From IMG/VR virus record IMGVR_UViG_3300045988_121909: DNA of 64,000 nucleotides; one strand, 5' to 3'. The notes beneath the pieces were generated by a model, which ran no database searches, had not been told where the DNA came from, and saw nothing but the letters and a program-made list of their open reading frames with translations. Within the stretch, counting starts at the first letter, position 1. The number at the start of each line of letters is the position of its first letter. The position numbers and the translations under genes are program-made. This document shows positions 11,803 to 61,406 of this stretch, piece by piece. Source of the stretch: a virus.

Positions 11803-12019
11803 GGAGATAAATATGGAACTCATAGCTACATTAGCTTTATTGTTAGTTATACTTATAATCGCGTTTGTCTTTAAATTTTGTTTAATACTTTTACTCATTG
11901 TAGCTCCTTTATACCTTTTATATAAAAATACTTTAAAGATGTAAGCAATTACATCTTTTTTTTTGTTTACATTTACTCTTGTGTATGTTATTATTAATTA
12001 TATAAAGGAGATAAATATT

Positions 12020-12739
12020 ATGAACGTATTGAAAAGAGAATTTTGTGTACAGATAATTAAATACGACTCACGCTATACGCCAGAAGTTGTATTCTATAAG
12101 AGCGGTAATAAAAATGCTGTAATACAAGCTGTAAAGCAGTTTATGAATACTTTAATTCCATACAACAGAAAGAAAGTTCTAGACACACTTACAAACACTA
12201 CGACAACTACGATTAAAACAATTAATGTTGCTAGATTTAAAACAGATGATGACACATACGGTTGGTATGTAATCAACGCAACTTACAGTATAATGTCGGT
12301 TGAAAAGCCACAGTTCAATGAGCAAGGTGAAGATGTTGAAGAGAAGAGAAAGAATCAAGTTCTTGCGCAGAAAAATTCATTAACAAGACTACGTAATGAA
12401 GTAGACTTTTACTCAACAATCATTACAGAGCTATTGAGAAAAGATATAATTCATAAAATTGTATCAGGCATTAGAATTAATGGGCAGAATAGAATTGTTA
12501 CTCCTTCATATGTCTTTGTTGAAAAAGCAGGAATTAGCTTTATGTTTAGTGTAATGTCAAAAAACGACAATATTGACACATTCTTAGAAAAAGTTGTTGA
12601 TACAGAAAACGATAACGATTTTAGATGTACTTGCTACAAAAAGAGCTTCAAAGAGCTTTCAAAACTAATGCACGACTTAGAAGATATAAGTAAGAGAGTT
12701 AGAATCGCAGTAGAAAAGGAGAGTGTAAATAATGCGTAA
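12020..12739 (+). CDS. hypothetical protein (239 aa)
   Basis: ATG at 12020 preceded by aaggag. The longer upstream ORF extension runs through the promoter. Confidence 0.5.
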   Translation: MNVLKREFCVQIIKYDSRYTPEVVFYKSGNKNAVIQAVKQFMNTLIPYNRKKVLDTLTNTTTTTIKTINVARFKTDDDTYGWYVINATYSIMSVEKPQFNEQGEDVEEKRKNQVLAQKNSLTRLRNEVDFYSTIITELLRKDIIHKIVSGIRINGQNRIVTPSYVFVEKAGISFMFSVMSKNDNIDTFLEKVVDTENDNDFRCTCYKKSFKELSKLMHDLEDISKRVRIAVEKESVNNA

Positions 12740-13604
12740 AGGTTACTGGAAGAAGAGAGTAAAAGACTACACGATTGATTTGCAGACTGTCAGAATATCA
12801 ACTAATGAACGTAGCATTGAAAATATTGTTAAATACAAGAATAGAAATACTGCAATGAAGAGCCTAAAGCAAGCTCTTAAGGCAAAAGGTGTAACAAGAC
12901 CTGTATTACCAGAGATAATGCGCGAGGTTACGCAAGCTCTCAACGACGTAAATGATGAAAAATATGAGAGCATCATACATTTTTTTGAAGATATGATGTT
13001 TATTATAAATATCCAGCAGATATGCACTAGACTTAAAAAAGAAGCATATGAGTTTAGCGTGAATGAAAAAGGTGAGAATATCTACCAAAAGAGACGTAAG
13101 CAGACACAAGCTACGCTTTATAGATTCTTTAGAAACTTATTCCATAGACAATATGAACGTCGTCTTATAGAACTAATTCAACCTCAGCTTGAAGAGTTAC
13201 TTCGTAAAGAAGTAAGCTTTTATATGTATAACAATGTATTTGTAATAGATGTCCCATACAGTGAGCAATGTATTAAGTTAAATGATGATATTGAAATTTA
13301 CTTTAACTTCGATGAATTACTTGATACTGAAAATAATTGTGTTGAAGTAACATTTAGTCACATTAAATTTGGTAAAGAAGTAGTATACGCAAGAAGTATG
13401 GGCAAAGAAATAGAAAAGATTCTGCATGCAGCAGAAGAGTATAAACCGGCGAATGCTGGTCTTTATGTTCATAGATGTGTTGAAGAAGCAATCTATAATA
13501 ATTTTACACCTACTAAAGAGGAAATAGCTATAGCTGAAAGAAACGGCAAAGTACTTAGAGAAGTACTGAGAGTATCAAAGGAGTTGAAGCAATGTGCAGT
13601 GTAA
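12732..13604 (+). CDS. hypothetical protein, GEN-I-x(2)-KR paralog family member 2
   Basis: Contains the ...NEKGENIYQKRRKQ... motif. Confidence 0.55.
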   Translation: MRKGYWKKRVKDYTIDLQTVRISTNERSIENIVKYKNRNTAMKSLKQALKAKGVTRPVLPEIMREVTQALNDVNDEKYESIIHFFEDMMFIINIQQICTRLKKEAYEFSVNEKGENIYQKRRKQTQATLYRFFRNLFHRQYERRLIELIQPQLEELLRKEVSFYMYNNVFVIDVPYSEQCIKLNDDIEIYFNFDELLDTENNCVEVTFSHIKFGKEVVYARSMGKEIEKILHAAEEYKPANAGLYVHRCVEEAIYNNFTPTKEEIAIAERNGKVLREVLRVSKELKQCAV

Positions 13605-14233
13605 TAGTTGGTAACATCGTCATTAGTGTTTTAATAATTTTACTGTATTTGGTGCAATATGCAATCGTACAAAGCTGTGTTGATATATCTGATACTGACG
13701 ATTATTTAATGTACGCATTTTCAGTATTCTTGATTAAAGTAGCAATTATACTAAGCATTGCTTTGAGTTTTGGTATATACGACGATTTAAGCGACAAAGA
13801 TGGACTACTACTGAAATATATCCAATTTATTATAATCTCAGTGTATGTGTTATCGTTTGTTGTTTTCCATATATACGTATATAGATTTAAGAAAGATTGC
13901 AAACTATGCCAAAAAATTAAAGCATATTTTGATATTGATTTAAAAGAATTAGTTAATGATTTTGTTAATCTTGATAGATGCAATAATAAAGTTGCAAGAG
14001 AGGAATTAAAACGCTTGCGTAAGCTATTTAAAATGTCAAAGTATTTTGACACTGACGAAGCTAAACAAGAATTTTTAAATGAAATAGTAGAAAAAGAAAT
14101 TGATAAGTTCATTCATCAAATAGACGAACGAAGCGCTGAAATACATAAAGAGAATGAAGAGAAACATAATCAAACTCTTATTAAAGATAAAGAGTTACTA
14201 AAGCAATTTAAAAAGATATACAATGAAGATTAA
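13592..14233 (+). CDS. membrane protein (213 aa)
   Basis: Three N-terminal hydrophobic helices and a charged C-terminus. Confidence 0.5.
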   Translation: MCSVIVGNIVISVLIILLYLVQYAIVQSCVDISDTDDYLMYAFSVFLIKVAIILSIALSFGIYDDLSDKDGLLLKYIQFIIISVYVLSFVVFHIYVYRFKKDCKLCQKIKAYFDIDLKELVNDFVNLDRCNNKVAREELKRLRKLFKMSKYFDTDEAKQEFLNEIVEKEIDKFIHQIDERSAEIHKENEEKHNQTLIKDKELLKQFKKIYNED

Positions 14234-14235
14234 AA

Positions 14236-14262
14236 TCAAGCATTACGCTTGATTTTTTTTTA
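14236..14262 (+). terminator. rho-independent terminator
   Basis: Hairpin atcaagc-atta-cgcttgat followed by a T9 run. Confidence 0.65.
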
Positions 14263-14263
14263 T

Positions 14264-14293
14264 GTTTACATCATTCTGAATAAGTGATATAAT
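14264..14293 (+). promoter_or_regulatory. promoter GTTTACA-N17-TATAAT upstream of rtcB
   Basis: gtttacatcattctgaataagtgatataat. Confidence 0.55.
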
Positions 14294-14326
14294 AAATATA
14301 TCAACTACTTAAGGAGAAGTTCATTT

Positions 14327-15520
14327 ATGTTCGAATTAAACGGAAAGTATGGTACAGCAAAAATATTTACAGACAACTGCGAAGTAGAAGCGCAGACACA
14401 GATAGTTAATCTTCTAAATCAGCCTTTTGCTAAAGATAGTAATGCTCGCTTTATGCCCGATGTTCACGCAGGTAAAGGTTGTACTGTGGGTACTACTATG
14501 AAAATCGTAGATAGAGCTTGTCCTAATCTTGTAGGTGTAGACATTGGCTGCGGTGTAGAAGTTTATAAGTTTAAGGCAGATGAAATAGATTTCGCTAAGC
14601 TAGATGAAATGCTACAAGCAAATACAAAAGTACCTTATGGTTTTAGTAAGAGAAATACTGCTCATAGATTTGCAAATGACGCAAGACTAAAAGAGTTAAA
14701 ATGTTTTGATACTATTGACTATAATGGCGCTATGCTATCTCTAGGTTCTTTAGGCGGTGGTAATCACTTTATCGAAATAAATGTTGATGAAGAGGGTTAT
14801 AACTACTTAGTTGTACACTCGGGTTCAAGACATCTTGGCATAGAGATTTGTAAGTACTACCAAGATATCGCTGAAAAGAATGAAAACAATGTAGATGTAA
14901 ATGCAGTTATTGAAGATTTAAAGAGAGCTGATAGACAGAGCGAAATACAAAACGAAATAAAGAGAATAAAAGAAGAATATCCAATCATACCTAAAGATTT
15001 AAGATGTGTTATGGGTACAGACTTAGAAGATTATCTACATGATATGAATATAGCTACTGAGTACGCTTCTTTATCAAGACAAGCTATAGCTGATGAGATT
15101 ATCTCATATATGAATTGGGATATACTAGAGCATTTCTGCTCTATTCATAATTACATTGACGTAGAAAATAAGATTATTCGTAAAGGTGCAATCTCTGCTC
15201 AAAAGGGTGAGAGAATAATCATCCCTATCTCTATGAAAGATGGTTCAATTATTGGTATCGGTAAAGGTAATTCTGACTGGAACTGCTCTGCTCCTCACGG
15301 CGCAGGTAGAGTTCTTTCTAGAAGTGCTGCTAAAGCTACTCTAACTGTAGAAGAGTTTGAAAAATCTATGGAAGGTATTTATACATCTTGCGTTGGTAGA
15401 AGTACTCTTGATGAATCTCCTATGGCATATAAGCCTCTTGATGAGATTAAGGCTGCAATCGCTGATACAGTAGATATTGAGCGTATAATTAAGCCAATTT
15501 ATAATTTTAAAGCTAATTAA
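14327..15520 (+). CDS. rtcB: RtcB-family RNA 3'-phosphate/5'-OH ligase
   Basis: Diagnostic RtcB motifs MPDVHAGKG, GGGNHFIEI, HSGSRHLG and APHGAGR. Length 397 aa; RBS aaggagaag. Confidence 0.85.
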   Translation: MFELNGKYGTAKIFTDNCEVEAQTQIVNLLNQPFAKDSNARFMPDVHAGKGCTVGTTMKIVDRACPNLVGVDIGCGVEVYKFKADEIDFAKLDEMLQANTKVPYGFSKRNTAHRFANDARLKELKCFDTIDYNGAMLSLGSLGGGNHFIEINVDEEGYNYLVVHSGSRHLGIEICKYYQDIAEKNENNVDVNAVIEDLKRADRQSEIQNEIKRIKEEYPIIPKDLRCVMGTDLEDYLHDMNIATEYASLSRQAIADEIISYMNWDILEHFCSIHNYIDVENKIIRKGAISAQKGERIIIPISMKDGSIIGIGKGNSDWNCSAPHGAGRVLSRSAAKATLTVEEFEKSMEGIYTSCVGRSTLDESPMAYKPLDEIKAAIADTVDIERIIKPIYNFKAN

Positions 15521-15533
15521 GGTGAGGTAAAGT

Positions 15534-16049
15534 ATGACAGATGAAATAAAAGATTTACTAATAAATTGTAAAGCGGATTGCGAAAGAGCAGATGATAGAG
15601 CACAAAACGCTATATCAAGTCTTGACGCGTTTGAAACTGAGTATGCAGACTTGCTAAGAGAAAGAACTAGACTTGAGCTAGATGCTGTAAACGCAGTACG
15701 TTTTCGCGATAAGCTGTATGATGATGTCGAGTTTCAGTTATTCAAAAGAATAAAAGCACGTAATGCAGACATACAGAAGTTTATAACAGCTCAGTGGGGA
15801 TGTGATATAAAAGCATTGATTGAGTTATTCAGTGCGATGCATGAAGCTGAATTATTTGGCTTTATGCGAATTGGTAGTACTTTTGGTGGTATTGAAGTTT
15901 GCTCAAACGACAACTTTAATATACGTTGCATTGAAGGAATAGACAGAATTAATTACGTAATCGACACGAAAAATGCACAAATAGCACTTTATACAGAAAA
16001 AGACACGAAAAAGTTAATAGATATTGATTTTATTGATTTAAGATATTAA
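15534..16049 (+). CDS. hypothetical protein (171 aa)
   Basis: ORF with RBS (aaggtgagg). Confidence 0.5.
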   Translation: MTDEIKDLLINCKADCERADDRAQNAISSLDAFETEYADLLRERTRLELDAVNAVRFRDKLYDDVEFQLFKRIKARNADIQKFITAQWGCDIKALIELFSAMHEAELFGFMRIGSTFGGIEVCSNDNFNIRCIEGIDRINYVIDTKNAQIALYTEKDTKKLIDIDFIDLRY

Positions 16050-16061
16050 GAAGGTAAGCAA

Positions 16062-16379
16062 ATGAATAACGACATCAAATTCTTCTATAAGTTTATGCAA
16101 GACGTAGCATTTACTAAAGCCTTTGACATTTATGCGTTTGAATGTTTTATCGATATTCTTGATAGAGTTAAACTAGATGAATTAAACATTGGTGATACTC
16201 TATCTGAACGTCTTGTTGAATGTTCTTGCTATGCTTACTCTGTAAAGTATTATGCATTCGATGAAGAAAATATTCTATGTCAGATTAGAGACGATATATC
16301 TAGTAGTACATTGAGCATTTTCATAGATAAAGATAGAAAGATTTTTCATATATCTTTAGACTCAATTTTATTACAATAA
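16062..16379 (+). CDS. hypothetical protein (105 aa)
   Basis: ORF with RBS (gaaggtaag). Confidence 0.5.
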   Translation: MNNDIKFFYKFMQDVAFTKAFDIYAFECFIDILDRVKLDELNIGDTLSERLVECSCYAYSVKYYAFDEENILCQIRDDISSSTLSIFIDKDRKIFHISLDSILLQ

Positions 16380-16455
16380 GGCGGCATAGTCCAGTGGCTC
16401 AAGACGGCAGACTGCAAATCTGCTTATCTCAGTTCGATTCTGAGTGCCGTCTCCA
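16380..16455 (+). tRNA. tRNA-Cys(GCA)
   Basis: Acceptor ggcggca/tgccgtc; anticodon arm gcaga ctGCAaa tctgc; T-arm ctcagttcgattctgag; CCA. Confidence 0.8.
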
Positions 16456-16459
16456 TTGT

Positions 16460-16536
16460 AGGGGTATGTTCTAATGGCTTATGATGTCGGTCTCCAAAAC
16501 CGTACGATGTGGGTTCGAGTCCTACTACTCCTGCCA
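16460..16536 (+). tRNA. tRNA-Trp(CCA)
   Basis: Acceptor aggggta/tactcct; anticodon loop ctCCAaa; T-arm gtgggttcgagtcctac; CCA. Confidence 0.7.
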
Positions 16537-16554
16537 ATTTTGAAAGGAAGTAAA

Positions 16555-17346
16555 ATGGAATTCAATTACAAGAAGAAAAGATTTAAGCAGTTTGACGTTA
16601 AGATTGAAATGTTTGAATGTGTTACTCAAGATTATAGTGAAACTCCAATTTTTACAATATCTTTTTACGCTGAAAATAGAAATATCTTGATGAAAGAATT
16701 AAAGAAATTTTTGAAAGAGCGTAATATAGATAATACTGCAAATATATTGTGCGTTCTGAATCGTGCTTCAACAGTATATACACATACACATTACAGACAA
16801 GTCGATAATACAGCTCATTTTATTTCAGGCAACTCGCTTTATAGAGTCACATTCAAATGTATTACATCAAGAGTAAGTTGTATGCCACCTAAAGATAGAG
16901 TAAACAATAAGGGCGAAAATATTCTTGAAAAGAGACTACGTCAAGCTTATGGAGATTTGCTGCTTTATAGATATAGCAAAGCGAGAGAGGTAGCAAATAA
17001 TTCTAGTATTGTAGTTGCAGCACGTAATCATTTAAAAGAAGAACTGCTTAAAAATACTGCAGTCGAGCCATTTAAAGATACAGCATTGCGTATAGACTTT
17101 AATCGCGCTAAAAAGATTACTATTGAGCTTTCAAAGTTTGTGCGTCTAGATTTTAAAGCTGAGTATAAATTCGATAAGACAGCGTTAGACGTTAAATTTA
17201 AGGTATTAAATATTATATATTATGGTAATGCTATACAAGAATTACCTCCTATTAACGATAGTATAGACGAAGAAATAGTTGAGCGTGCAGAAGAGACTGC
17301 TAAGATTTATGAAGAAATTATTTCTCTTTTGAAAAAGAATGCTTAA
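16555..17346 (+). CDS. hypothetical protein, GEN-I-x(2)-KR paralog family member 3
   Basis: ATG at 16555 after aaaggaagt; contains NKGENILEKRLRQ. The longer ORF call overlaps tRNA-Trp. Confidence 0.55.
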   Translation: MEFNYKKKRFKQFDVKIEMFECVTQDYSETPIFTISFYAENRNILMKELKKFLKERNIDNTANILCVLNRASTVYTHTHYRQVDNTAHFISGNSLYRVTFKCITSRVSCMPPKDRVNNKGENILEKRLRQAYGDLLLYRYSKAREVANNSSIVVAARNHLKEELLKNTAVEPFKDTALRIDFNRAKKITIELSKFVRLDFKAEYKFDKTALDVKFKVLNIIYYGNAIQELPPINDSIDEEIVERAEETAKIYEEIISLLKKNA

Positions 17347-17358
17347 AAGGTACTATAA

Positions 17359-17895
17359 ATGAAAAATATTTTAATTCTTGTTGATATGCAGAATGGTTTT
17401 ACTGAGCATCAACGAACAAATGATTTAACAAAAAAGATTGAGAGCATACTTTGTTTATTTGATGAAGTTATAGCAACTCAATATATAAACTATGACAATA
17501 GCGTTTACGAAAATCTAATGCGTTGGTGTCAGTTAAAAAGTAACGACGAGATTGCGATTAGATCTGAACTACAGCCATATATAACTGAAGTTTTTCCTAA
17601 GAGTCTTTATACTTGCATTTCACCAAACTTTATTCAGAGACTTTGTCAGTTAAATGACGGTTTATACCCAACAAAGATTTTTATTGCTGGAGTTGATACA
17701 GACTGTTGTGTGCTAAAGATAGCAACTGATTTGTTTGAGAGTAATATTAGACCTGTTGTACTTACAGAGTACTGTTACTCTAATGGTGGAGAAGAATCTC
17801 ATAAATCTGGCATTTTATGCATGAAAAGACTACTTGGAGATAAACAGCTAGTAGATGCTATTCTTACTACAAATTCAGATATTAATTTGTTGTAA
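17359..17895 (+). CDS. isochorismatase-family cysteine hydrolase (nicotinamidase/PncA-like)
   Basis: ILVDMQNGF N-terminal motif and IAGVDTDCCV catalytic-cysteine region, typical of isochorismatase-fold hydrolases. Confidence 0.55.
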   Translation: MKNILILVDMQNGFTEHQRTNDLTKKIESILCLFDEVIATQYINYDNSVYENLMRWCQLKSNDEIAIRSELQPYITEVFPKSLYTCISPNFIQRLCQLNDGLYPTKIFIAGVDTDCCVLKIATDLFESNIRPVVLTEYCYSNGGEESHKSGILCMKRLLGDKQLVDAILTTNSDINLL

Positions 17896-17901
17896 AAAGA
17901 T

Positions 17902-17931
17902 GTTTACAAATAGGTTGTAATATGTTATAAT
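17902..17931 (+). promoter_or_regulatory. promoter GTTTACA-N17-TATAAT with ~140-nt structured leader before the HE gene
   Basis: gtttacaaataggttgtaatatgttataat. The leader contains a 9-bp inverted repeat, agcgcttaa...ttaagcgct. Confidence 0.5.
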
Positions 17932-18078
17932 TTATTTAAATTTATCGAAAGTGATTAATTCGATGAATTCCCAGCGCTTAATCAATAGGAAGTCAGCTAG
18001 TGTAATCAACTTCGCTGCACTGAGGACAGGCAGAAACCTCTAAGCGCTAACTTATCAAGGTAAAGGATAATAAATTTA

Positions 18079-18984
18079 TTGACAAATAGCATTGCAAATA
18101 CGAAAACATTTAAATGTGCGTGTGGAAAAGAATTTATAAACGGTCAGCAGTTTAATGGTCATAAGTCTAGATGCAAGATACACCATTTGAATAAATACGG
18201 TAATCTTGATATTTATGATAAAGTGCAATCTGCATTATCCAATGGTATGTCAATAAGTAAAAAACAAAAAGCAAAAGAAAAGCGTCAAACACGCATGCAA
18301 ACATGGGTTGATGAAAAGCATCAATGCGAAAAATGCGGTAAAATAATGGCAGTTTTCTATGGCTCAGGAAGATTCTGCTCGCGTAGTTGCGCTAATAGTA
18401 AACAACATTCTGAAGAAACTAAAACTAAAATAAGTAAAGCTCTAAAACTAGACGTAGAAAAGAAGTTTTGTAAGCAATGCGGCAAAGAATTATGTTCTAG
18501 AAATATAAGTGGTTACTGTAAAGTTTGTCTTAGAACTTGTGATGAATTTCATGAGCAAAGAAAACTAAGCGCTAGAAAAGTTTACGAAAATTCTGTTAAA
18601 AACGGTACATTTAAAGGATGGCAACTAAGAAATGAAACACCGTTTTCTGAAAAATTTTTTATTAACATACTCAATCAGCATAAAATACCGTATACCCATA
18701 ATAAACCCGTAAAGCAATCAAATAATCGCTATTGTTATTTTCTTGATTTTTACATAGAGTTACCTGACATGAAACTCGATTTAGAAATTGATGGCAAGCA
18801 ACACAAATACCCTGAACGAAAAGAAGCAGATAAGCGTAGAACAGCTGAATTAGAAAATTTAGGTTATACAATATATAGAATTGAATGGAATGAAGTAAGA
18901 ACAGAAAAAGGAAAATTACAATTAAATCAGAAAGTAGAAGATTTTTTAAATTTTCTATATAAGAATGGTTTTAAAAAGATATAG
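18079..18984 (+). CDS. homing-endonuclease-like protein (zinc-ribbon repeats plus C-terminal PD-(D/E)XK nuclease), paralog of 21813-22703
   Basis: N-terminal half about 70% identical to the ORF at 21813 (CxCGKEF..QQFNGHKS..GSGRFCSRSCAN). C-terminal DFYIE...LEIDG..H nuclease motif. Apparent TTG start. Confidence 0.6.
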   Translation: MTNSIANTKTFKCACGKEFINGQQFNGHKSRCKIHHLNKYGNLDIYDKVQSALSNGMSISKKQKAKEKRQTRMQTWVDEKHQCEKCGKIMAVFYGSGRFCSRSCANSKQHSEETKTKISKALKLDVEKKFCKQCGKELCSRNISGYCKVCLRTCDEFHEQRKLSARKVYENSVKNGTFKGWQLRNETPFSEKFFINILNQHKIPYTHNKPVKQSNNRYCYFLDFYIELPDMKLDLEIDGKQHKYPERKEADKRRTAELENLGYTIYRIEWNEVRTEKGKLQLNQKVEDFLNFLYKNGFKKI

Positions 18985-19059
18985 GCTATTAGCTCAGGTG
19001 GTTAGAGCATTCGTCTGATACGCGAAAGGTCTTAAGTTCGAATCTTAAATAGCCTACCA
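18983..19059 (+). tRNA. tRNA-Ile(GAT)
   Basis: Acceptor aggctat/atagcct; D-arm tagctcaggtggttagagc; anticodon loop ctGATac; T-arm cttaagttcgaatcttaa; CCA. Confidence 0.8.
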
Positions 19060-19071
19060 ATAAGAGAATTT

Positions 19072-19144
19072 CACTGATTACAGTTTAATTGGGTAAACGT
19101 CTGCAATAGCAGAAGATTGCGGGTTCAAGTCCCGTCTTCAGTGG
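19072..19144 (+). tRNA. irregular tRNA-like element (possible pseudo-tRNA)
   Basis: Recognisable D-arm (gtttaattgggtaaac), T-arm (gcgggttcaagtcccgt) and a 6/7 acceptor pairing. No foldable 5-bp/7-nt anticodon arm and no encoded CCA. Confidence 0.3.
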
Positions 19145-19498
19145 GTGCACAGATTCTCTTTATGGCTACTTAGAGCTCTGAGTAGCCGTCTACGGTCACA
19201 CAGTACAGCCTGCACGCGGCGTGACTGCTACATAACTAATGTACTAAAGAATGGACATTATGAAAAGGGTAAGTCAGTGAGTAGCCATGTCGGCGCAATA
19301 GCTGAGATAATCTTACTTGGTAGTGAAGTTAGTTTTAATCTAACGTATAACTTTTCATAATAATGAGTAGCTCAATTTTCTACCGCCAGTAATGAGGAAA
19401 TACGAGAGTGAAAGTCAAACTTATGTAGCCGATATTCGTATTAGTCGGTAAAGCTCTAAAGCTAGCTAGACAGAGCCTACATAAGTCAGTCCATATAT

Positions 19499-19574
19499 GC
19501 TGGTATAGCTCAATTGGTAGAGTACTTGTTTTGTAATCAAGGTGTTGGGGGTTCAAATCCCTCTATCAGCTCCA
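19499..19574 (+). tRNA. tRNA-Thr(TGT), second copy with a different body
   Basis: Acceptor gctggta/tatcagc; anticodon loop ttTGTaa with U-U at 31-39; T-arm gggggttcaaatccctc; CCA. Confidence 0.65.
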
Positions 19575-19575
19575 G

Positions 19576-19602
19576 TTTATGCAACGTATGTTGCATTTTT
19601 TT
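19576..19602 (+). terminator. rho-independent terminator
   Basis: Hairpin atgcaac-gtat-gttgcat followed by a T9 run. Confidence 0.65.
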
Positions 19603-19664
19603 TTATGTTAGTTTACAAGTTGATAAAAATAGTTTATTATATCTATAGAGGAGATTAAAAAACT

Positions 19665-20291
19665 ATGAGTACATTAACTACATTAATTAATTTTGTATCA
19701 ATATTGATAATTATATACAATACGCTTGATGCTTTATTATTTAGCAGAGCAAGACTTAATAAGCAGCTTAGTACTCTTGCTGAAGAAAAGCATAAATCAT
19801 CGTTTGCAATGATTGTATCGCTTGCGATTATATTAGTGGTAAATACATATTTCGTGATTACCACTGATACATCTCAATATTTGTTTGCAGGCGAAGTATT
19901 TCTTGTTTTTATAATGTTTATGAATTATATTTCATTCATTACAAAAGAAGAGTGTTGTACAGTAGTTATTGAAGATACTGTACGAAATACAATTAATATT
20001 GTGCGTATGGAAAATATTAAGCTATGTAAAAAGTATTCAGACGTACTACCTGCTGAATTAGTTAATGATGTTTTAAACTATAATGGCGAAATTAATTTTA
20101 ATTATGCAGGTTATCGAGAAGATTTTTGCAAAGAGATTGTTAAACCGTACTATGAAAAATTATTAATAAGAGAAACATTTAATACAGATGAAGAAATAGA
20201 ATCGTTTGAAATGAATGTACTCTTAAAAGAATTAATACGGTTTTACGCTAATATGCGTGAATTCGTAAACGAGCATGAGTGTATAAGATAA
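19665..20291 (+). CDS. membrane protein (208 aa)
   Basis: Two N-terminal TM helices; soluble C-terminal domain. Confidence 0.5.
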   Translation: MSTLTTLINFVSILIIIYNTLDALLFSRARLNKQLSTLAEEKHKSSFAMIVSLAIILVVNTYFVITTDTSQYLFAGEVFLVFIMFMNYISFITKEECCTVVIEDTVRNTINIVRMENIKLCKKYSDVLPAELVNDVLNYNGEINFNYAGYREDFCKEIVKPYYEKLLIRETFNTDEEIESFEMNVLLKELIRFYANMREFVNEHECIR

Positions 20292-20301
20292 AGGAGAGAC
20301 T

Positions 20302-20967
20302 ATGATATTAGTAGAGTATTTAATATTCAGTTTATATTTATTTTTTCAATTTATTATGTTTTTAGTATTTAATGACATCGCTAAGATAGATTTTAAAGTC
20401 GATACGTCTTCAAACGATATTACAGTCGCATTTCTTAAATGGGTATTAAGCTTTTGGTTTACGGTTAATTCTGTAGCTATGGTTGCAGCAATGTTAAATG
20501 TTTTATTTGTAAAAAGTTTCTCTATTATCTTTGGCATTATGATTATTTTAGTTGCAGTAATACATATACTCTTATGTACATATATGAAAAAGAGTGTAAA
20601 AGAACTAAAAATAAAAGAAGTATTAACTGCTTGTTCAGACAGAGACTACGATGTAAACGCGATAGAAAGTTACATTCACTCTTATAACATAGATAAGATA
20701 TATAAAGAGCTTATCCTACCTCTTCATAATTTAATCATAGCAAGAGATAGCTTTAAAACAGTTGAAGCGCAAGAAAAGTATGATGAAGTAGTACTAAACG
20801 AAGAAATAGAAATATTTATGAAGAATCTAGAGTATGTAATTAATGAAGAAAAAGAAAATCGTGAGAAAGCAAGACAGCAAAAAGAAAACATAGCAAAAAT
20901 ATCTGATGAAAAGATACTAGACAATATAAAGAAAAACTACAAAGGGTTAGAAAAATACTACGAGTAG
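20302..20967 (+). CDS. membrane protein (221 aa)
   Basis: Three or four N-terminal TM helices; Lys/Glu-rich C-terminus. Confidence 0.5.
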   Translation: MILVEYLIFSLYLFFQFIMFLVFNDIAKIDFKVDTSSNDITVAFLKWVLSFWFTVNSVAMVAAMLNVLFVKSFSIIFGIMIILVAVIHILLCTYMKKSVKELKIKEVLTACSDRDYDVNAIESYIHSYNIDKIYKELILPLHNLIIARDSFKTVEAQEKYDEVVLNEEIEIFMKNLEYVINEEKENREKARQQKENIAKISDEKILDNIKKNYKGLEKYYE

Positions 20968-20996
20968 TTTACGTATCAAGCCATTTGTGATATAAT
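20967..20996 (+). promoter_or_regulatory. promoter GTTTACG-N17-TATAAT positioned to transcribe solo omega-RNA-like copy 3
   Basis: gtttacgtatcaagccatttgtgatataat, ending 7 nt before the conserved aatgcggttgacgac. Confidence 0.5.
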
Positions 20997-21003
20997 AATA
21001 TTA

Positions 21004-21121
21004 AATGCGGTTGACGACCGTATTCTCGCTTGGTAAATTTGCTCTAGAGGGTAGTTAGTTTTAAAGCTAACGAGAGTGACCTAAGCTTACCCAGGAATGC
21101 GCTTGAGCGCAACGTCATAAT
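21004..21121 (+). ncRNA. solo omega-RNA-like / TnpB right-end element, copy 3
   Basis: Conserved with copies 1 and 2. Followed about 15 nt later by a hairpin (aaagagaat..attctcttt) and a T-run. Confidence 0.5.
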
Positions 21122-21161
21122 ATTATTTATTAAAGAGAATTTACCTATTCTCTTTTCATTT

Positions 21162-21239
21162 GCAGAAGTAGTTCATATTGGTTAGAACGTTACCTTGCCA
21201 AGGTAAAGGCTGCGAGTTCAATTCTCGTCTTCTGCTCCA
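21162..21239 (+). tRNA. tRNA-Gly(GCC)
   Basis: Acceptor gcagaag/cttctgc; anticodon arm ttacc ttGCCaa ggtaa; CCA. Confidence 0.8.
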
Positions 21240-21242
21240 TAC

Positions 21243-21319
21243 GGGCTCATAGCTCAGCTGGATAGAGCAATAACCTTCTAAGTTATTTGTCCAAGGTTCG
21301 ACTCCTTGTGAGCTCGCCA
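21243..21319 (+). tRNA. tRNA-Arg(TCT)
   Basis: Anticodon arm ataac ctTCTaa gttat; T-arm caaggttcgactccttg; CCA. Confidence 0.8.
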
Positions 21320-21323
21320 ATAT

Positions 21324-21408
21324 AGCGGGGTGATGAAATTGGTAGACATACAGGAATTTGACTCCTGCGCCTTAAAGCTTGTGGGTTCAAGTCCCACCCC
21401 CGCTGCCA
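21324..21408 (+). tRNA. type II tRNA (long variable arm) with apparent anticodon TTG
   Basis: Acceptor agcgggg/ccccgct; anticodon arm cagga atTTGac tcctg; 14-nt variable arm; T-arm gtgggttcaagtcccac; CCA. The isotype is ambiguous, because the Gln anticodon sits on a Leu/Ser-type body. Confidence 0.5.
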
Positions 21409-21415
21409 GATACAT

Positions 21416-21495
21416 TGCGGAGTGGAGAAGTGGTTATCTCGTCAGGCCCATAACCTGAAGGTTTATCGTCGGTTCGAATCCGACCTCCGCAACCA
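21416..21495 (+). tRNA. tRNA(CAT) number 1 (Met, or Ile2 if lysidinylated)
   Basis: Acceptor tgcggag/ctccgca; anticodon arm tcagg ccCATaa cctga; 9-nt variable loop; T-arm gtcggttcgaatccgac; CCA. Confidence 0.65.
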
Positions 21496-21504
21496 ATACT
21501 TTTT

Positions 21505-21581
21505 GCGTCACTAGCTCAATTGGATAGAGTGCCTAACTACGAATTAGTAGGATGAGGGTTCAAGTCCTTCGTGACGCGCCA
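21505..21581 (+). tRNA. tRNA-Arg(ACG)
   Basis: Acceptor gcgtcac/gtgacgc; anticodon loop ctACGaa; T-arm gagggttcaagtccttc; CCA. Confidence 0.75.
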
Positions 21582-21596
21582 GATACGGGAAGATAC

Positions 21597-21676
21597 TCAA
21601 GTTTGGTGAAGAGGGCAGTTTGCTACACTGCTAGGATGTAACAGTCGCGTGAGTTCGAGTCTCACTCTTCCCGCCA
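21597..21676 (+). tRNA. tRNA-Ser(GCT), type II
   Basis: Acceptor gggaaga/tcttccc; anticodon arm gcagt ttGCTac actgc; long variable arm; T-arm gtgagttcgagtctcac; CCA. Confidence 0.75.
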
Positions 21677-21679
21677 TTT

Positions 21680-21756
21680 GTACCATTAGCTCAGTAGGTT
21701 AGAGCAGGCGGCTCATAACCGCAAGGTCCTTTGTTCAAATCAAAGATGGTGCACCA
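21680..21756 (+). tRNA. tRNA(CAT) number 2
   Basis: Acceptor gtaccat/atggtgc; anticodon loop ctCATaa; T-arm ctttgttcaaatcaaag; CCA. Confidence 0.65.
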
Positions 21757-28588: not shown

Positions 28589-28690
28589 CTTCTGACTGCT
28601 GTTTTTATCATAGGCGGTAATTATTATTAAAAGAGCATAAAAGTTTACGAGAGACGATTCTGATACGTCTGGAGTATATCTCAGAGCTAT
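28580..28690 (+). repeat. palindromic intergenic repeat element (MITE-like), inverted copy of 39694-39801
   Basis: Reverse complement of the 39694-39801 element; contains the 16-bp perfect palindrome centred on gagatatatctc. Confidence 0.6.
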
Positions 28691-28741
28691 ATTTTACTAT
28701 ATATGTAAAATAAAACATTTAACATAAAATTGTTTACAGTT

Positions 28742-28771
28742 CCACAGTTAGATGATATAATAAACTTAAGA
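28742..28771 (+). promoter_or_regulatory. promoter GTTTACA-N17-TATAAT
   Basis: gtttacagttccacagttagatgatataat. Confidence 0.55.
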
Positions 28772-28878
28772 TAAACTTATTAAAAGTATAGAAAACTAAA
28801 CTAACGATTTTTGCATTTTTCCTTGTTAGTCGAATTTTCTGCACCGCTAGTAAGTTTATCTTTTTTTTTCTGTCAAAA

Positions 28879-28902
28879 AGAAGTACAACTAAATAAAAAG
28901 AG
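28879..28902 (+). promoter_or_regulatory. conserved 24-bp motif AGAAGTACAACTAAATAAAAAGAG (copy 1 of 10) upstream of the recombinase gene
   Basis: Exact consensus copy, about 35 nt before the ATG at 28939. Confidence 0.5.
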
Positions 28903-28938
28903 AGCGCAAGAGTGCTCATTAACAGAAAGGAATTTTTA

Positions 28939-56676: not shown

Positions 56677-57660
56677 GTGAAATTTGACGTAAGAGAAAAA
56701 AGAGTTAAGAAATGGGATAAGCTAGTACCAGAGTATAGAATTACTAACGACCTTGAGCCTATCTCTGTAGAGTTTAAGTCTTACCCTACTGTAGAGCAAC
56801 TTGCTGAAATGTGCGTAGGACCGCTGCTTGCAACTTGGTCAAGAGCAGGAGATGTAAACAACGGAAGATATGACGTTTACAATCTAACAGATGAAGACAA
56901 AATGAAGATTCTGTATAGAGCTATGCATAACAATGGTTTTCTACCTGGTTTCAGAGATATGATTAATTTTGTACTCTGTATTGATGGAATACATCATCAG
57001 GAAACAACTCATTTGTATCGTCATAAGTGGAGTGCAAGCGCTATGTGCACAGGTGACAATCCTCAGCATATCTGTGATATTGCTATGCCAGAGAGTTATG
57101 AAAAGCTTGGTTTTAAAGACAGATACCTAAAGCTAGTAGATGACGCAATGAACCTCTATTGTGATATGATGAATACGCACGAAATCTCTAATCAGGATTG
57201 TAGGTTAGTCACACCAAAGACAGTTCTTCATTTTGTATACCCTACAATGAATTTTAATGAGCTAATGAGATTCCTAGGCCAGAGACTTGACTTACAAGTA
57301 CAGCCTAATGAAGAGTATATTCTTGCTCTAAGAACTTATGTAGCTCTATGTGAGATTTATCCTTTTATGGCTGATAAGTTCAACATCAAGAATAAGAGTA
57401 ATTTTTACATTCACGAAACTAAGACTAACTTTGGTAGCGCTCTATTCCAGCCTAATGAAGAAAACAAGGAAGTGCTTGAGTGGACTACACCTGATGATTA
57501 TCTACAGAAGAGCAAAGATGAACTTGCAGGCTCAGACGACAGTAGTATTCTAAGAAAGATTCAGAAAGAGTGTGAGAATAGACTTACAGAATTGCTTGAA
57601 TACTCTAAGCGCACTTGGCCTTATCTATACACAGAGGAGTATAAGAGAGATTGGGTATGA
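56677..57660 (+). CDS. hypothetical protein (327 aa)
   Basis: GTG start after gaaaggaag; no confident motif. Confidence 0.5.
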   Translation: MKFDVREKRVKKWDKLVPEYRITNDLEPISVEFKSYPTVEQLAEMCVGPLLATWSRAGDVNNGRYDVYNLTDEDKMKILYRAMHNNGFLPGFRDMINFVLCIDGIHHQETTHLYRHKWSASAMCTGDNPQHICDIAMPESYEKLGFKDRYLKLVDDAMNLYCDMMNTHEISNQDCRLVTPKTVLHFVYPTMNFNELMRFLGQRLDLQVQPNEEYILALRTYVALCEIYPFMADKFNIKNKSNFYIHETKTNFGSALFQPNEENKEVLEWTTPDDYLQKSKDELAGSDDSSILRKIQKECENRLTELLEYSKRTWPYLYTEEYKRDWV

Positions 57661-57732
57661 TATATAGAACGAAATTTAATCTAACTGACGAAATAGTTAG
57701 TGCTGACAATGCAGAAGAGTATATGAATTACG

Positions 57733-58086
57733 ATGCTAATATACAAGATTACATCGAAAAAAGAAGACATACGTGCTAAAGTCTACAAAATTGAATTTGT
57801 ATTCAACAGGCAAAATTACAAATCAGGTCATATTAATGTATACACTAATGAAAAGCTTGATGATGCGCAGCTTAAATATCTAAGTAGTTTCCTAAAAGAT
57901 GAAGTGTTTAACGGATACGGTAAAGATTTTAGCTCAGAAGAATTCGCTAATTACGACGCAGCGTTGTATGACTGTTATTGGAGTTTCTGTCCCGAAAGAG
58001 CTTGGGAAGATGATTACGAAGAAGAAAGAGTAATCTCCAGATTTTGTCCGTCTGACGAGTACGTGCTTGAACTTGTTAGAGATTGA
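57733..58086 (+). CDS. hypothetical protein (117 aa), possibly the 3' part of a frameshifted gene starting at 57658
   Basis: A 40-aa ORF (57658-57777, MIYRTKFNL...) overlaps in another frame across an A6 run (cgaaaaaagaag). Confidence 0.4.
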   Translation: MLIYKITSKKEDIRAKVYKIEFVFNRQNYKSGHINVYTNEKLDDAQLKYLSSFLKDEVFNGYGKDFSSEEFANYDAALYDCYWSFCPERAWEDDYEEERVISRFCPSDEYVLELVRD

Positions 58087-58092
58087 TGTTTT

Positions 58093-58130
58093 GCTCTCAG
58101 ATATTTAACTTCTGAGAGCTTTATATGTTT
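58093..58130 (+). terminator. terminator formed by a short palindromic-repeat copy
   Basis: gctctcaga-tatttaact-tctgagagc (9-bp perfect stem) followed by tttatatgtttt. Confidence 0.6.
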
Positions 58131-58287
58131 TATTCATAAACCGTTATTTCATTTTCATACTAGCTACCAGTAAAGTTAGTAACAAAAACTATATAGCAAA
58201 TCAAAGATAAAGGGGTGACGTTCTACGAGCCGTGACTACAACAAAATAAGAGAATTAAGAAAAGCAACACAAGAGCGTCACGCTCAA

Positions 58288-59454
58288 ATGACTTGTAAAG
58301 CATTCGAGCTTAAATCACTAAGTCTAAGCTTTCTAAATATCAAAAAAGAAATGCTAACTAAATTCTTTAGGCAAGCGAATTATATTTATAACAGTTTAGT
58401 TGCTGATAGTAAAAAATTTAAAACTACTGACAAAGAAATTACTATTTTATGCGGTGACCATTATGAAATTAGGCGACTTGATTTAGGTTCCGGCATTAAG
58501 CAAGGTATTCGTGATAAATTTATCACTAATTGCAAATCTTTAAAAGGTAAAAAAGATAGTGGTGATAAAATTGGCAAGCTAAAGTTTAAATCTTATACTA
58601 ACGCTATTCCACTTAGGCAATACAAAAATACTTATAATATAAATTTTGATAAAAATACTATTAGAATACAGTGTATTAAGCAAGCATTTAAAGTTAGAGG
58701 TTTAAAGCAAATACCTGAGAATGCTGAAATATGCAATGCTGAACTTATCCGTAAAGCAAGTGGGTACTATATACACGTAGTCATTTTTGTGCCTAAAGAA
58801 AATAAACAAGCAAATAGCAGACAAATTGGTTTAGATTTTGGGATAAAATCTAACGTCACATCGTCTAATGGTGAAAAATATGATGTTAAAGTACCTGAGT
58901 CTAAAGGGACAAAATTAGCATCTCGTAAAACGAATCATAAAAAGAAAGGTTCTAAAAATAGGCAAAAAGCCCAACAAAAGCTAAGAATAGCTTATGAAAA
59001 AGATACAAATAGGAAATTAGATAAAGCTAAGAAGTTAGTTTCATATCTAGACTCTTATGATTTAATAGCATTTCAAGATGAAAATATAAAAGATTGGCAT
59101 AAAGAGTTTGGAAAAGTCGTACAGCATTCAGCTATGGGGTTCATAAAAGCAGTTTTGAAGACCAAAGCAAATTCCATAATGATAAGTAGATATTTTCCAA
59201 GTACTCAAATATGCTCAGTTTGCAGTAAGCTAACACCTCACTCTCTGAATAAGCGAGATTATGACTGTAGCTTTTGTGGTTATCACCACGATGACAGAGA
59301 CGTGAAAGCAGCACAAACGATTCTTGATTATGTAAATGTCTCTCTGGGACGGAGAGCAAATAGTCTTGTGGAGTTAAAGACCTCTGCGCTTAAAGATTTT
59401 TCTTCAAGTATAAGTCTAGACTATGAAGCAGGAAGACCTTACTCTCTAGAGTAA
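58288..59454 (+). CDS. tnpB: IS200/IS605-family TnpB (OrfB), full length, second distinct copy
   Basis: 388 aa; RuvC-I region LDFGIKS, RuvC-II IAFQDEN, zinc finger CSVCS..CSFCG, RuvC-III HHDDRDVKAAQTIL. Its 3' flank is unrelated to the omega-RNA-like repeat at 567-682. Confidence 0.8.
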   Translation: MTCKAFELKSLSLSFLNIKKEMLTKFFRQANYIYNSLVADSKKFKTTDKEITILCGDHYEIRRLDLGSGIKQGIRDKFITNCKSLKGKKDSGDKIGKLKFKSYTNAIPLRQYKNTYNINFDKNTIRIQCIKQAFKVRGLKQIPENAEICNAELIRKASGYYIHVVIFVPKENKQANSRQIGLDFGIKSNVTSSNGEKYDVKVPESKGTKLASRKTNHKKKGSKNRQKAQQKLRIAYEKDTNRKLDKAKKLVSYLDSYDLIAFQDENIKDWHKEFGKVVQHSAMGFIKAVLKTKANSIMISRYFPSTQICSVCSKLTPHSLNKRDYDCSFCGYHHDDRDVKAAQTILDYVNVSLGRRANSLVELKTSALKDFSSSISLDYEAGRPYSLE

Positions 59455-59538
59455 TGGTTAGTCCACGCTCTCTACCTCTACTAATTATCTCAACCTTGAC
59501 GTGTTGTAGAGGCTTATTCAACTAATAGAGATATAAAA

Positions 59539-59562
59539 AGAAGTACAACTAAATAAAAAGAG
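59539..59562 (+). promoter_or_regulatory. 24-bp motif copy 4
   Basis: Exact consensus copy 85 nt after the tnpB stop. Confidence 0.5.
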
Positions 59563-59578
59563 AAAAGGATGCTAAATA

Positions 59579-59635
59579 TAGCTCTGAGATATACTCCAGA
59601 CGAACGAGATTGACTTCTGAGAGCTTTTCATGTAT
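59579..59635 (+). repeat. palindromic intergenic repeat (short form) with terminator-like hairpin
   Basis: agctctgagatatactccagacgaacgagattgacttctgagagct followed by tttcat. Confidence 0.55.
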
Positions 59636-59980: not shown

Positions 59981-60030
59981 TGTGAGAAGAATCCGTATAA
60001 TGTTATTCCAGTGAGTAGTATTACAGAAGT

Positions 60031-60136
60031 GCTCTGAGATATACTCCAGACGAACCAGAGTCGTCTCTCGTAAACTTTTATGCTCTTTTAATAATAATTA
60101 CCGCTTAAGACGAAAATTATTCTCAGAAGTTAAAGG
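60031..60136 (+). repeat. palindromic intergenic repeat element (long form), direct copy of 39694-39801
   Basis: gctctgagatatactccagacgaaccagagtcgtctctcgtaaacttttatgctcttttaataataattaccgc..tctcagaagttaaagg. Confidence 0.6.
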
Positions 60137-60290
60137 AGAACTTGGTGAAAAAGATTACAGAGTTTATGTCTAAAGTACCGCTGAGTGTTAGACTACTTGT
60201 TAGTTTTGCACTATTATATGCATTTGGTATTTTTGGCTTTATGTTAAGGACGTCAGATTTTACTTACGCTGAATTTTAATTTTAAAAGTT

Positions 60291-60500
60291 GTTTACAGAT
60301 TAATTGTTTTGTGTTATAATACAAACTATATTCTACAAAAATACGTTCCTTTTCTCTATAAGTTTTGAATCAAGATTTACGTATCGTAGAATTTATACAC
60401 TGCAAAAATATGTTCCTTTTTGGTAAGTATTTTGATTAAAGATTTACATATCGCAGTTAGTTAAGGCGCTCAGCTTAAGAGAGCGTCTTTTTTTTTTGTA
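60291..60500 (+). ncRNA. candidate small non-coding RNA locus (promoter, two ~68-nt tandem repeat units, terminator), no ORF
   Basis: GTTTACA-N17-TATAAT at 60291-60320. Units ctacaaaaatacgttccttttctctataagttttgaatcaagatttacgtatcgtag and ctgcaaaaatatgttcctttttggtaagtattttgattaaagatttacatatcgcag. Terminator gcgctc-agcttaaga-gagcgtc followed by a T11 run at 60469-60500. Confidence 0.45.
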
Positions 60501-60501: not shown

Positions 60502-60525
60502 AGAAGTACAACTAAATAAAAAGAG
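60502..60525 (+). promoter_or_regulatory. 24-bp motif copy 6
   Basis: Exact consensus, 16 nt upstream of the ATG at 60542. Confidence 0.5.
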
Positions 60526-60541: not shown

Positions 60542-60949
60542 ATGCTCGTAAAAAGAGATTATGAAGTTGAGCTTGTAGATAGACAAGCAAATGACGAAGT
60601 ATATGAACTTGTCGGAGTATTCAATTTTGAAAATGATACTCTGCAAGGTATATTTGAGTCTAAATTAATTAATTATCATGATTTTTATATCGATGATAAT
60701 GACAACGAAATAGAAATCAATGCCAAAATAAAAGTACGCATAAAAGCAAGTGTAAGTCTTGATACACCACGTGCAGTAAATGAGTATAGCTTGAATAATT
60801 TAGTTATACTACAAGTTGATGTTGACAGCCCAGAAATCTTAGAGTGGATAACTGATTCAATCAATGATTATTTCACTTATGACGAGTACAGTTATTCAGC
60901 GCAAGCTGTTTTTACTGTACGCTTGAATGCAAAAGAATATCACTTATAA
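60542..60949 (+). CDS. hypothetical protein, paralog family A member 4
   Basis: MLVKRDYEVELVDRQANDEVYELVGVFNFENDTLQGIFESKL. Confidence 0.5.
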   Translation: MLVKRDYEVELVDRQANDEVYELVGVFNFENDTLQGIFESKLINYHDFYIDDNDNEIEINAKIKVRIKASVSLDTPRAVNEYSLNNLVILQVDVDSPEILEWITDSINDYFTYDEYSYSAQAVFTVRLNAKEYHL

Positions 60950-61181: not shown

Positions 61182-61406
61182 ATGTTTGAGAAATTACGAG
61201 AAATATTAAACGCATACGCAGATAAAGGTTATGCTGAAATTAAATATGCAGGTGTAGATTATCTAATTCTCTGTAAAGAAAGTCTCAAAGTAGATAGTTT
61301 CACATATCACAATAATGAGCTATGCGTTTGTCTTGAAGATTATGATAATTATAATGTTGTGCCTGTTAGATTCATCACTGAGATTGATGATAAGAAGTGC
61401 AACTAA
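61182..61406 (+). CDS. hypothetical protein (74 aa)
   Basis: ORF after gagagaaatagaatg; the C-terminus overlaps 24-bp motif copy 9. Confidence 0.45.
   Translation: MFEKLREILNAYADKGYAEIKYAGVDYLILCKESLKVDSFTYHNNELCVCLEDYDNYNVVPVRFITEIDDKKCN

Follow-up and report, generated by a model that had tools for sequence, protein, structure and literature searches.

What can a phage encode in a short interval that opens with a promoter, closes with a terminator and holds between them two similar repeats and no conserved open reading frame (ORF)? The question is raised by positions 60,291 to 60,500 of a 64,000-nucleotide (nt) stretch of viral DNA (IMG/VR record IMGVR_UViG_3300045988_121909), referred to as the window, which makes up the last 64 kb of a 190,663-base-pair (bp) scaffold from a human metagenome (ENA ERZ28659716; 31-35% GC). 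An original prediction, drawn from the letters alone, had proposed a probable phage small RNA (sRNA) gene without an ORF at this place. We find the proposal supported by an invariant promoter, a constant terminator, compensatory changes in the repeats, G·U pairs that specify the + strand and an invariant core of 21 nt, and we consider it highly probable that the element is a transcribed gene for a structured non-coding RNA. The best explanation of the whole, to which we assign a probability of roughly 0.4, is a stand-alone gene for a non-coding RNA of ~170 nt that would act in trans through exposed, invariant nucleotides. Few sRNAs of lytic phages have been characterised and hardly any from uncultivated large phages of the human microbiome; the present locus is a clean case, with unambiguous gene signals, a two-module structure with compensatory changes and a 21-nt strand that is more conserved than the adjacent coding sequence.

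Results

Promoter, tandem repeat and terminator

The promoter (60291-60320, + strand) consists of GTTTACA at 60291-60297, a 17-nt spacer, TG at 60312-60313 and TATAAT at 60315-60320, and is thus a sigma-A/sigma-70-type site with an extended -10 element (TGT-TATAAT), present exactly as the original prediction had described it (GTTTACA-N17-TATAAT). In a consensus scan it scores 11/12 with the TG extension and is the top sigma-70-like site across 58-62.5 kb. A scan of the whole window returns 13 sites on the + strand, this one among them, that share tGTTTACA-N17-(TG)nTATAAT; most lie 20-30 nt 5' of a ribosome-binding site (RBS) or directly before tRNA genes. Because 13 sites share the same extended consensus, we take this promoter to belong to the phage's standard host-type class. 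Transcription would be expected to start near 60327, at the foot of helix P1 of the first repeat unit (U1, described below).

Behind the promoter we find a tandem repeat of 2 x 67 nt, ungapped and 72% identical, so that the two imperfect copies seen originally stand, with a period and an identity slightly below the ~68 nt and ~75% first given. This pair, U1 and U2, is the sole direct repeat of at least 40 nt within 300 nt in the whole 64 kb. The unit closes with an intrinsic terminator (about 60463-60499, + strand), in which a 9-bp stem, AAGGCGCTC (60463-60471) against GAGCGTCTT (60481-60489) with the GC core GGCGCTC/GAGCGTC, encloses a 9-nt loop and leads into a run of T residues. The terminator is as strong as had been claimed, but its run of T residues before a GT is T10 (60488-60497), one shorter than the T11 first given; it was recognised by folding, and the consensus scan overlooked it only because the loop limit of that scan is 8 nt. 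It functions on the + strand only. With a predicted start near 60327 and a short linker between U2 and the terminator, the RNA should measure ~170 nt and consist of a hairpin, a 4-nt linker, a second hairpin and the terminator.

Two paralogous hairpins of + polarity

Structure prediction for each repeat, which had been suggested as a check, folds both as irregular hairpins of 63 nt within the 67-nt period. In U1 (60330-60392, + strand), P1 has 7 bp (ATTCTAC/GTAGAAT), P2 has 6 bp (ATACGT/ACGTAT), and P3 forms an apical hairpin; the paralogous U2 (60397-60459, + strand) has the same architecture, with a P1 of 5 bp (ACTGC/GCAGT) and a P2 of 6 bp (ATATGT/ACATAT). The internal inverted repeats noticed at the outset are the arms of these folds (CTAC..TACG / CGTA..GTAG in each unit). 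Each unit has an internal loop in which AAAA stands opposite a single C and a 5'-side bulge of 13 nt, in which UCCUUUU comes first and a variable part follows. For U1 the minimum free energy structure and the centroid are the same (z = -2.2). The most conserved segment of each unit is its 21-nt core, CTACAAAAATACGTTCCTTTT in U1 (60333-60353, + strand) and CTGCAAAAATATGTTCCTTTT in U2 (60400-60420, + strand), which runs through the 5' arms of both P1 and P2 and takes in the A-rich loop as well as the first part of the pyrimidine bulge.

The two units differ from each other by fixed compensatory pairs, namely AU to GC at columns 6/61 (P1), CG to UA at columns 15/55 (P2) and a third pair in P1. 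Across 18 distinct unit sequences, 87.6% of the cells at paired positions are canonical, as opposed to 27-59% when the partners are slid, and the observed covariation score is reached by none of the shuffles. In two relatives (L156 and L159; relatives are designated by such handles throughout) the P3 sequence of U1 has been swapped for a different one and the hairpin is still formed. A number of conserved pairs are of the G·U or U·G kind and would turn into A·C mismatches on the opposite strand, and the folded strand is therefore the + strand. These observations indicate a folded single strand of + polarity, in which helices P1 and P2 appear to have been kept by compensatory changes.

Purifying selection without coding

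The element is kept in a group of ~190-kb phages of human metagenomes that comprises ~10 lineages. Relatives were drawn from 2 IMG/VR contigs, 2 metagenome contigs and, beyond these, contigs located by way of homologues of the neighbouring protein of 135 amino acids (aa). The alignment of the module holds 8 distinct full sequences, with the partial variants L127 and L162 left out, and it reveals strong purifying selection. The core, CTRCAAAAATAYGTTCCTTTT, is invariant at 42/42 columns over both units (21/21 in each); the 3' strand of U2 (60446-60456) is invariant at 11/11 positions and that of U1 at 9/11. The -35 hexamer is 100% invariant and the extended -10 element 93%, as against 11% for the 5' part of the spacer. 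In the gene of a small peptide just upstream, codon position 2 is 89% and position 3 is 64% invariant, and the upstream untranslated region (UTR) is 57% invariant. The two partial variants carry one change each (A to T in L127, A to G in L162), both in the A-rich loop of U1.

A terminator is present in all variants, and the pairing of its stem is kept through G-C/G-U/A-U exchanges; in L152 and L156 it has been replaced by an unrelated hairpin with T8-9 in the same place. The linker between the end of P1 in U2 and the terminator stem varies from 3 to 11 nt among the relatives (3 nt in the window, 60460-60462). As far as sequence comparison can tell, the pattern of conservation is that expected of a functional promoter-RNA-terminator unit, and the unpaired A-loop and UUCCUUUU bulge show every sign of being recognised by their sequence.

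The element has no coding potential. The statement that it lacks a start codon and an RBS holds for the RBS, there being no Shine-Dalgarno (SD) sequence, and has to be amended for the start codon, as a TTG at 60304 and an ATG at 60410 exist, neither of them conserved. These open a 40-aa ORF (60304-60426) and a 9-codon ORF, and among the relatives candidate ORFs vary in start, frame, length and end. Because the period is 67 nt, the two units moreover fall in different frames. Unconserved ORFs, the missing SD and the shift of frame between the units together rule out a coding reading.

A covariance model built from one unit (R1), which is usable as the seed of a new RNA family, matches exactly 2 units in every one of the ~10 lineages, always a U1-type unit followed by a U2-type unit, and finds no further match in the window or in ~1.2 Mb of unrelated loci. 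Among the phages in GenBank none resembles the window at the DNA level, and the only match of the element there is a chance one of 44 nt, in an intergenic region of an Enterococcus phage without P1 or P2. The specific two-block pattern of the element has no match in the genomes of 185,579 bacterial and archaeal species. Pattern scans of IMG/VR return L001 and L002 as the only real relatives, the other matches being due to chance and several of them lying inside coding sequence; of the 74 loci from a metagenome scan, L113 and L127 alone are real. At the gathering thresholds of Rfam 15 the window matches tRNAs only, and at E <= 10 the best local match has E = 0.63, with 23 bits against a gathering score of 70; ARAGORN finds no tRNA at the element. 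We conclude that this is a genuine and previously uncatalogued phage small-RNA gene.

A proposed mode of action

How could such an RNA work? In the explanation that we favour, a host-type RNA polymerase would transcribe the RNA from the phage's TTTACA/TGnTATAAT promoter, presumably early in infection, and would stop at the intrinsic terminator. P1 and P2 would then serve as a scaffold that shows two invariant unpaired elements, the AAAA internal loop and the pyrimidine bulge (G)UUCCUUUU, the latter continued by 8-10 nt that vary between lineages. The RNA would act in trans and might in addition serve the upstream peptide mRNA as its 3' UTR. The UUCCUUU(U/C) bulges would pair with purine-rich SD-type sequences (AAAGGAG/AAAGGAA) and thereby modulate translation, with the variable part of the bulge perhaps adding specificity.

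We favour a trans-acting contact with purine-rich RBS regions because of the SD complementarity, the rarity of TTCCTTT and the presence of UUUUUCC in a second ORF-less unit of the window (described below). The genes of this phage use SD sequences of the type AAAGGAG/AAAGGAA, to which UUCCUUU is complementary, and TTCCTTT has 3 occurrences on the + strand of the 64 kb, two of them in this element. In most variants the bulge is extended by CUCC or CUCU. The general type has a bacterial counterpart: low-GC bacteria possess sRNAs with C/U-rich anti-SD seeds, for example RsaE/RoxS and the streptococcal csRNAs. Like these, the present element has a sigma-A promoter, an intrinsic terminator and repeated, exposed pyrimidine motifs complementary to the SD, on what is predicted to be a short stand-alone transcript. 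It differs from them in that it has no sequence or Rfam relationship to them, carries the motif in a helix bulge and not in an apical loop or linker, and consists of two strictly conserved paralogous modules in a large phage of lytic type.

Several points weigh against this explanation, and above all against the specific anti-SD base pairing, which we put forward tentatively and regard as somewhat unlikely. The relatives are close (~75-100% identity in the module), and the covariation amounts to few fixed events, mostly between the paralogues. The ~170-nt transcript is itself a prediction. A complementarity of 7 bp to the SD is generic, and the window shows no enrichment of extended complements to the bulges and yielded no specific target. 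The sole perfect match of 11 nt is AGAGAAAAGGA (59559-59569, right after a copy at 59540 of the 23-nt motif described below), a complement of the U1 bulge UCCUUUUCUCU (60347-60357), but it is not conserved in L154 and may be due to chance. In U2 the CUUU of the bulge can pair with AAAG instead, which would mask the bulge. Invariant unpaired bases, finally, fit recognition by a protein equally well, and the main alternative is the sequestration of a protein. In all these cases the 21-nt strand offers a sharply defined mutational target, whether for translation control, a decoy or anti-defence.

Decoy readings

Sequestration would make the element an RNA decoy of a new kind, in which both modules present the 21-nt strand (the A-loop together with UUCCUUUU, which resembles the tail of 16S rRNA) and titrate a host factor early in infection. 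We think this improbable. The factor might be a defence nuclease controlled by an RNA antitoxin, or else a component by which SD sequences or the 3' tail of 16S rRNA are recognised. If it were true, the membrane peptide encoded upstream and the RNA would form a portable cassette for host takeover or anti-defence.

A better-known form of decoy is suggested by the type III toxin-antitoxin loci, whose antitoxin array is the closest known architecture. Here the units would mimic the RNA antitoxin of an endoribonuclease of the ToxN/CptN/TenpN type, be cut at the A tract and neutralise the toxin. The arrays of this type (toxI, cptI, tenpI) share with the present element a constitutive promoter, about two partly non-identical RNA repeats (2.0 copies here), a Rho-independent terminator, a gene and an A-rich tract, and the succession of promoter, ~2 non-identical tandem repeats, intrinsic terminator and gene is the very definition of a type III locus (PMC3401426). 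Reported repeats have 31-62 nt in 1.9-5.6 copies (PMC3401426, Table 2), and tenpI repeats are often non-identical and contain a conserved A stretch (PMC12283969), to which the invariant, unpaired A tract CAAAAAUA may be compared. There is also a phage precedent for antitoxin mimicry, since the pseudo-ToxI of phage PhiTE is reported to counter abortive infection (PMC3475682).

The resemblance does not extend to the units themselves or to their surroundings. At 67 nt the unit exceeds the reported range, the units are closed, long irregular hairpins and not open repeats that form pseudoknots, and U1 and U2 are stably different paralogues and have not been homogenised. Nor was a toxin found. The 135-aa gene next to the element (60542-60949, downstream of the terminator) encodes a strongly acidic product (pI 4.2) without a match in Pfam, PHROGs, PADLOC, NCBIfam or the PDB sequences and without a ToxN/AbiQ, CptN or TenpN signal; its AlphaFold (AF2) model, with a pLDDT of 32, is too poor for a fold search. 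This gene has its own copy of the 23-nt motif and is dispensable, being missing from three lineages in which the RNA is intact (L001/L113, L002 and L127). A host counterpart is likewise lacking in the 185,579 species genomes. We refrain from classing the element as a type III locus and regard a role as an orphan antitoxin decoy as improbable.

A cis-acting module of the peptide mRNA?

The gene upstream of the element leads to an alternative of another kind. A 44-codon ORF (60145-60279, + strand; MKKITEFMSKVPLSVRLLVSFALLYAFGIFGFMLRTSDFTYAEF), preceded by the SD AAAGGAG at 60132-60138, encodes a hydrophobic and basic peptide (pI 9.4; grand average of hydropathy +0.76) with one predicted transmembrane helix. 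The start codon is GTG in the window and ATG at the same position in some relatives, and the ORF is present in 8/8 module variants. Its only homologues form one near-identical protein cluster, gene callers having mostly missed the ORF. Judged from its sequence, the peptide resembles small membrane toxins or holin-like peptides. The gene always lies immediately upstream of the sRNA promoter, its stop codon 12 nt 5' of the -35 element, and as no terminator separates the ORF from the RNA, U1 and U2 are therefore also the 3' UTR of the peptide mRNA.

The hairpins might then be a cis-acting 3'-UTR module, with signals for RNase III-type processing or for stability, and the internal promoter would merely add copies; in a variant of this idea they would fold back on the SD of the peptide gene and silence a toxic peptide, in the manner of type I toxin control. 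Much fits such a role: peptide ORF and RNA are inherited together in all variants whereas the genes on either side change, the peptide has the look of a small membrane toxin, its invariant SD is complementary to UUCCUUU, and the stack of P1, P2 and P3 (~21 bp with internal loops) would have the usual size of an RNase III substrate. A precedent exists in the RNase III sites of early mRNA of phage SP82 (refs 19 and 20 of PMC4838370; Panganiban & Whiteley 1983, cited there). Like the T7 R-sites and the SP82 sites, our units are homologous to each other, form irregular hairpins of ~60 nt that are interrupted by internal loops, and lie 3' of a strong host-type promoter in an early or host-takeover region; they differ in that they form a terminated unit of their own and do not separate cistrons, and in that their invariance includes unpaired bases.

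This last difference counts against a cis-acting role, as the invariance of 21 nt, unpaired bases included, exceeds what a stability hairpin needs. A strong promoter with perfect conservation stands exactly at the foot of U1, which speaks for the hairpins themselves as the product, and the complementarity to the peptide mRNA stops at the generic 7 nt. On balance we accord the cis-acting role, silencing variant included, a low probability. Type I antisense control of the peptide mRNA was rejected: the RNA is co-directional with the peptide gene and does not overlap it, the complementary arms have 10-13 nt at 77-90% complementarity, and the energy of the duplex is weaker than that of 98/100 shuffles.

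Leader, DNA element and CRISPR mimic

Could the element instead control what lies downstream, as a tandem aptamer for a ligand or protein or as a put-like antitermination RNA that governs read-through of the terminator? The order of promoter, structured RNA, strong terminator and genes fits such leader designs, the same layout recurs at 28733-28912, and no TTTACA-type promoter follows further downstream up to the end of the window. The downstream gene, however, is a different one or absent among the relatives, and the downstream genes have the 23-nt motif of their own. The terminator has been wholly replaced in L152 and L156, and therefore no conserved alternative pairing between it and U2 is possible; the variable linker of 3-11 nt moreover splits P1 of U2 from the stem. 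A regulatory leader is thus, in our estimate, very unlikely.

Two direct repeats with internal palindromes may also act as DNA, as iterons bound by a protein (the alternative that the original prediction itself had offered as its refutation), as an origin or as the pair of hairpins at the ends of a miniature IS200/IS605 (PATE-like) element. In favour of such a role, TnpB/IS elements and solo omega-RNA/right-end modules occur in these phages, and one of the latter sits exactly at this locus in L152. The conserved RNA-type signals and the structure are a poor match for any of this. A class-typical promoter and a functionally conserved terminator bracket the element, its compensatory helices and G·U pairs indicate a folded + single strand, two sites at a spacing of 67 bp are unlike an iteron array, and all relatives have a single copy of the element at a fixed position, no second one occurring in any sequence scanned. 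We give a DNA-level function very little credence. A miniature IS200/IS605 (PATE) element or a TnpB omega-RNA was also rejected as a specific candidate, the element being single-copy, fixed and unrelated to the module (module X, below) that follows tnpB in L165, as was a link to the tnpB gene upstream, which sits in an insertion (57656-59465) that the relatives lack.

The last alternative is a mimic of CRISPR repeats, either an RNA anti-CRISPR (Racr) or a viral crRNA-like mini-array, in which the 67 nt would divide into a repeat of ~37 nt and a spacer of ~30 nt. The period is near the 36 + 30 nt of class 2 arrays. The 3' half of U1 (TCAAGATTTACGTA..GTAG) may also loosely resemble the CRISPR1 repeat of S. 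thermophilus, and the UCUAC..GUAGA stem the Cas12a handle. The would-be spacer, though, is the invariant core, which pairs with the would-be repeat and covaries with it, and the unit is therefore one hairpin: a spacer would be variable and unpaired, and this one is invariant and paired. U2 has no Cas12a-like stem, and the 185,579 bacterial and archaeal genomes hold no related sequence. Although Racrs and viral crRNA-like RNAs do exist (PMC10651486; bioRxiv 10.1101/2024.10.29.618823), we find it hardly credible that this is one of them. Comparisons with St1Cas9, Cas12a-handle and Cas13b-DR repeats, H/ACA or C/D guides, bridge RNAs, K-turns and RAT sites were dropped, because either the features that define these classes are missing or the whole unit forms one covarying hairpin.

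The cassette and its neighbourhood

The peptide gene and the RNA travel as a cassette that is flanked by copies of a 23-nt motif, in a hyperplastic region of small ORFan genes near the end of the contig. One copy of this motif (GAAGTACAACTAAATAAAAAGAG; 60503-60525, + strand) bounds the RNA unit, outside the RNA itself, and starts the next gene cassette; a motif promoter directly 3' of the terminator had already been noticed in the original prediction. The window holds 10 copies where 0 are expected (28880, 47000, 56456, 59540, 59958, 60503, 60952, 61150, 61394 and 61650), all on the + strand and 7/10 of them within 59.5-61.7 kb. Most lie just 3' of a stop codon or terminator and 5' of an RBS, and one is inside an ORF. 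Where relatives differ by indels the size of a gene, both breakpoints fall at copies of the motif, which has the look of a phage-specific promoter and, at the same time, of a recombination joint for the shuffling of gene cassettes. In the leader of the peptide gene the window retains (59981-60035) the 3' end of a 70-aa gene; L152, L156, L159 and L160 have this gene intact, which points to a deletion in the window's lineage. The 70-aa gene is a paralogue of a 74-aa gene at 61182-61406. The locus also illustrates how genes of this sort are passed on, as a cassette of peptide gene and RNA set between repeated promoter motifs in an early region that is hyperplastic.

Phages of the T4 type have comparable mobile regulatory cassettes, the PeSLs, made of a promoter and a stem-loop. 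Common to both are a hyperplastic region of small ORFans, genes bounded by a repeated promoter-like motif and stem-loops, and indels at the copies of the motif. PeSLs differ in being flanking motifs and not a conserved two-hairpin RNA, and the sRNA unit is not repeated elsewhere. Stem-loops of another type do recur in the window: related hairpin elements (AGCTCTGAGA...CAGACG.ACSAGA...TCTGAGAGCT with a U-rich tail) lie at 59580-59632, 60028-60092 and 58091-58130, with an inverted copy at 28622-28686, and often stand 17-50 nt 3' of the 23-nt motif. They may be terminators, short motif-driven transcripts or cassette boundaries.

TnpB elements and a second ORF-less unit

The same hyperplastic region is being invaded by TnpB/omega-RNA elements. 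The 1.8-kb insertion at 57656-59465, absent from L001 and L002, contains a small upstream ORF, a terminator hairpin and a gene for a TnpB of 388 aa (58288-59454; Pfam Cas12f1-like_TNB and OrfB_IS605) that has no close relative in the 185,579 genomes. Far upstream, at 3665-3990, a strong TTTACA-17-TGaTATAAT promoter is followed by ~300 nt without an RBS-led ORF, just 5' of a 68-aa Zn-ribbon ORF and the tRNA cluster. The first ~110 nt of this interval form module X (3708-3817), which occurs also in L165 (1779-1892 and 4850-4968), always ends in ...GTCAT and has no match in Rfam or GenBank phages. In L165 module X is the sequence directly 3' of a frame-interrupted tnpB, and it therefore looks like a solo TnpB omega-RNA or IS right-end module, here behind an early promoter.

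A solo module X of ~130 nt, homologous to 3708-3817, is also found in L152 (4634-4775) and in L153 between the sRNA promoter and U1, with U1 and U2 intact. Its insertion there shows that IS activity at the locus is ongoing. The promoter of L152 would, on the evidence of this arrangement, transcribe an omega-RNA scaffold whose 'guide' position is taken by the first ~20 nt of U1 (TCTACAAAAATACGTTCC).

A second ORF-less unit at 28733-28870 has the same class of promoter, a single long hairpin of ~100 nt (z = -5.3) and T9, followed by the 23-nt motif and a gene. The apical loop of this hairpin, UUUUUGCAUUUUUCC, exposes UUUUUCC, and the unit is probably another early sRNA. Elsewhere the window carries 25-26 tRNA genes (4237-21756). 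They form several clusters, lie without exception on the + strand and between them serve all 20 amino acids. All ORFs of at least 150 aa that are not overlapped by a + strand ORF lie on the + strand as well, and the cumulative GC skew rises monotonically.

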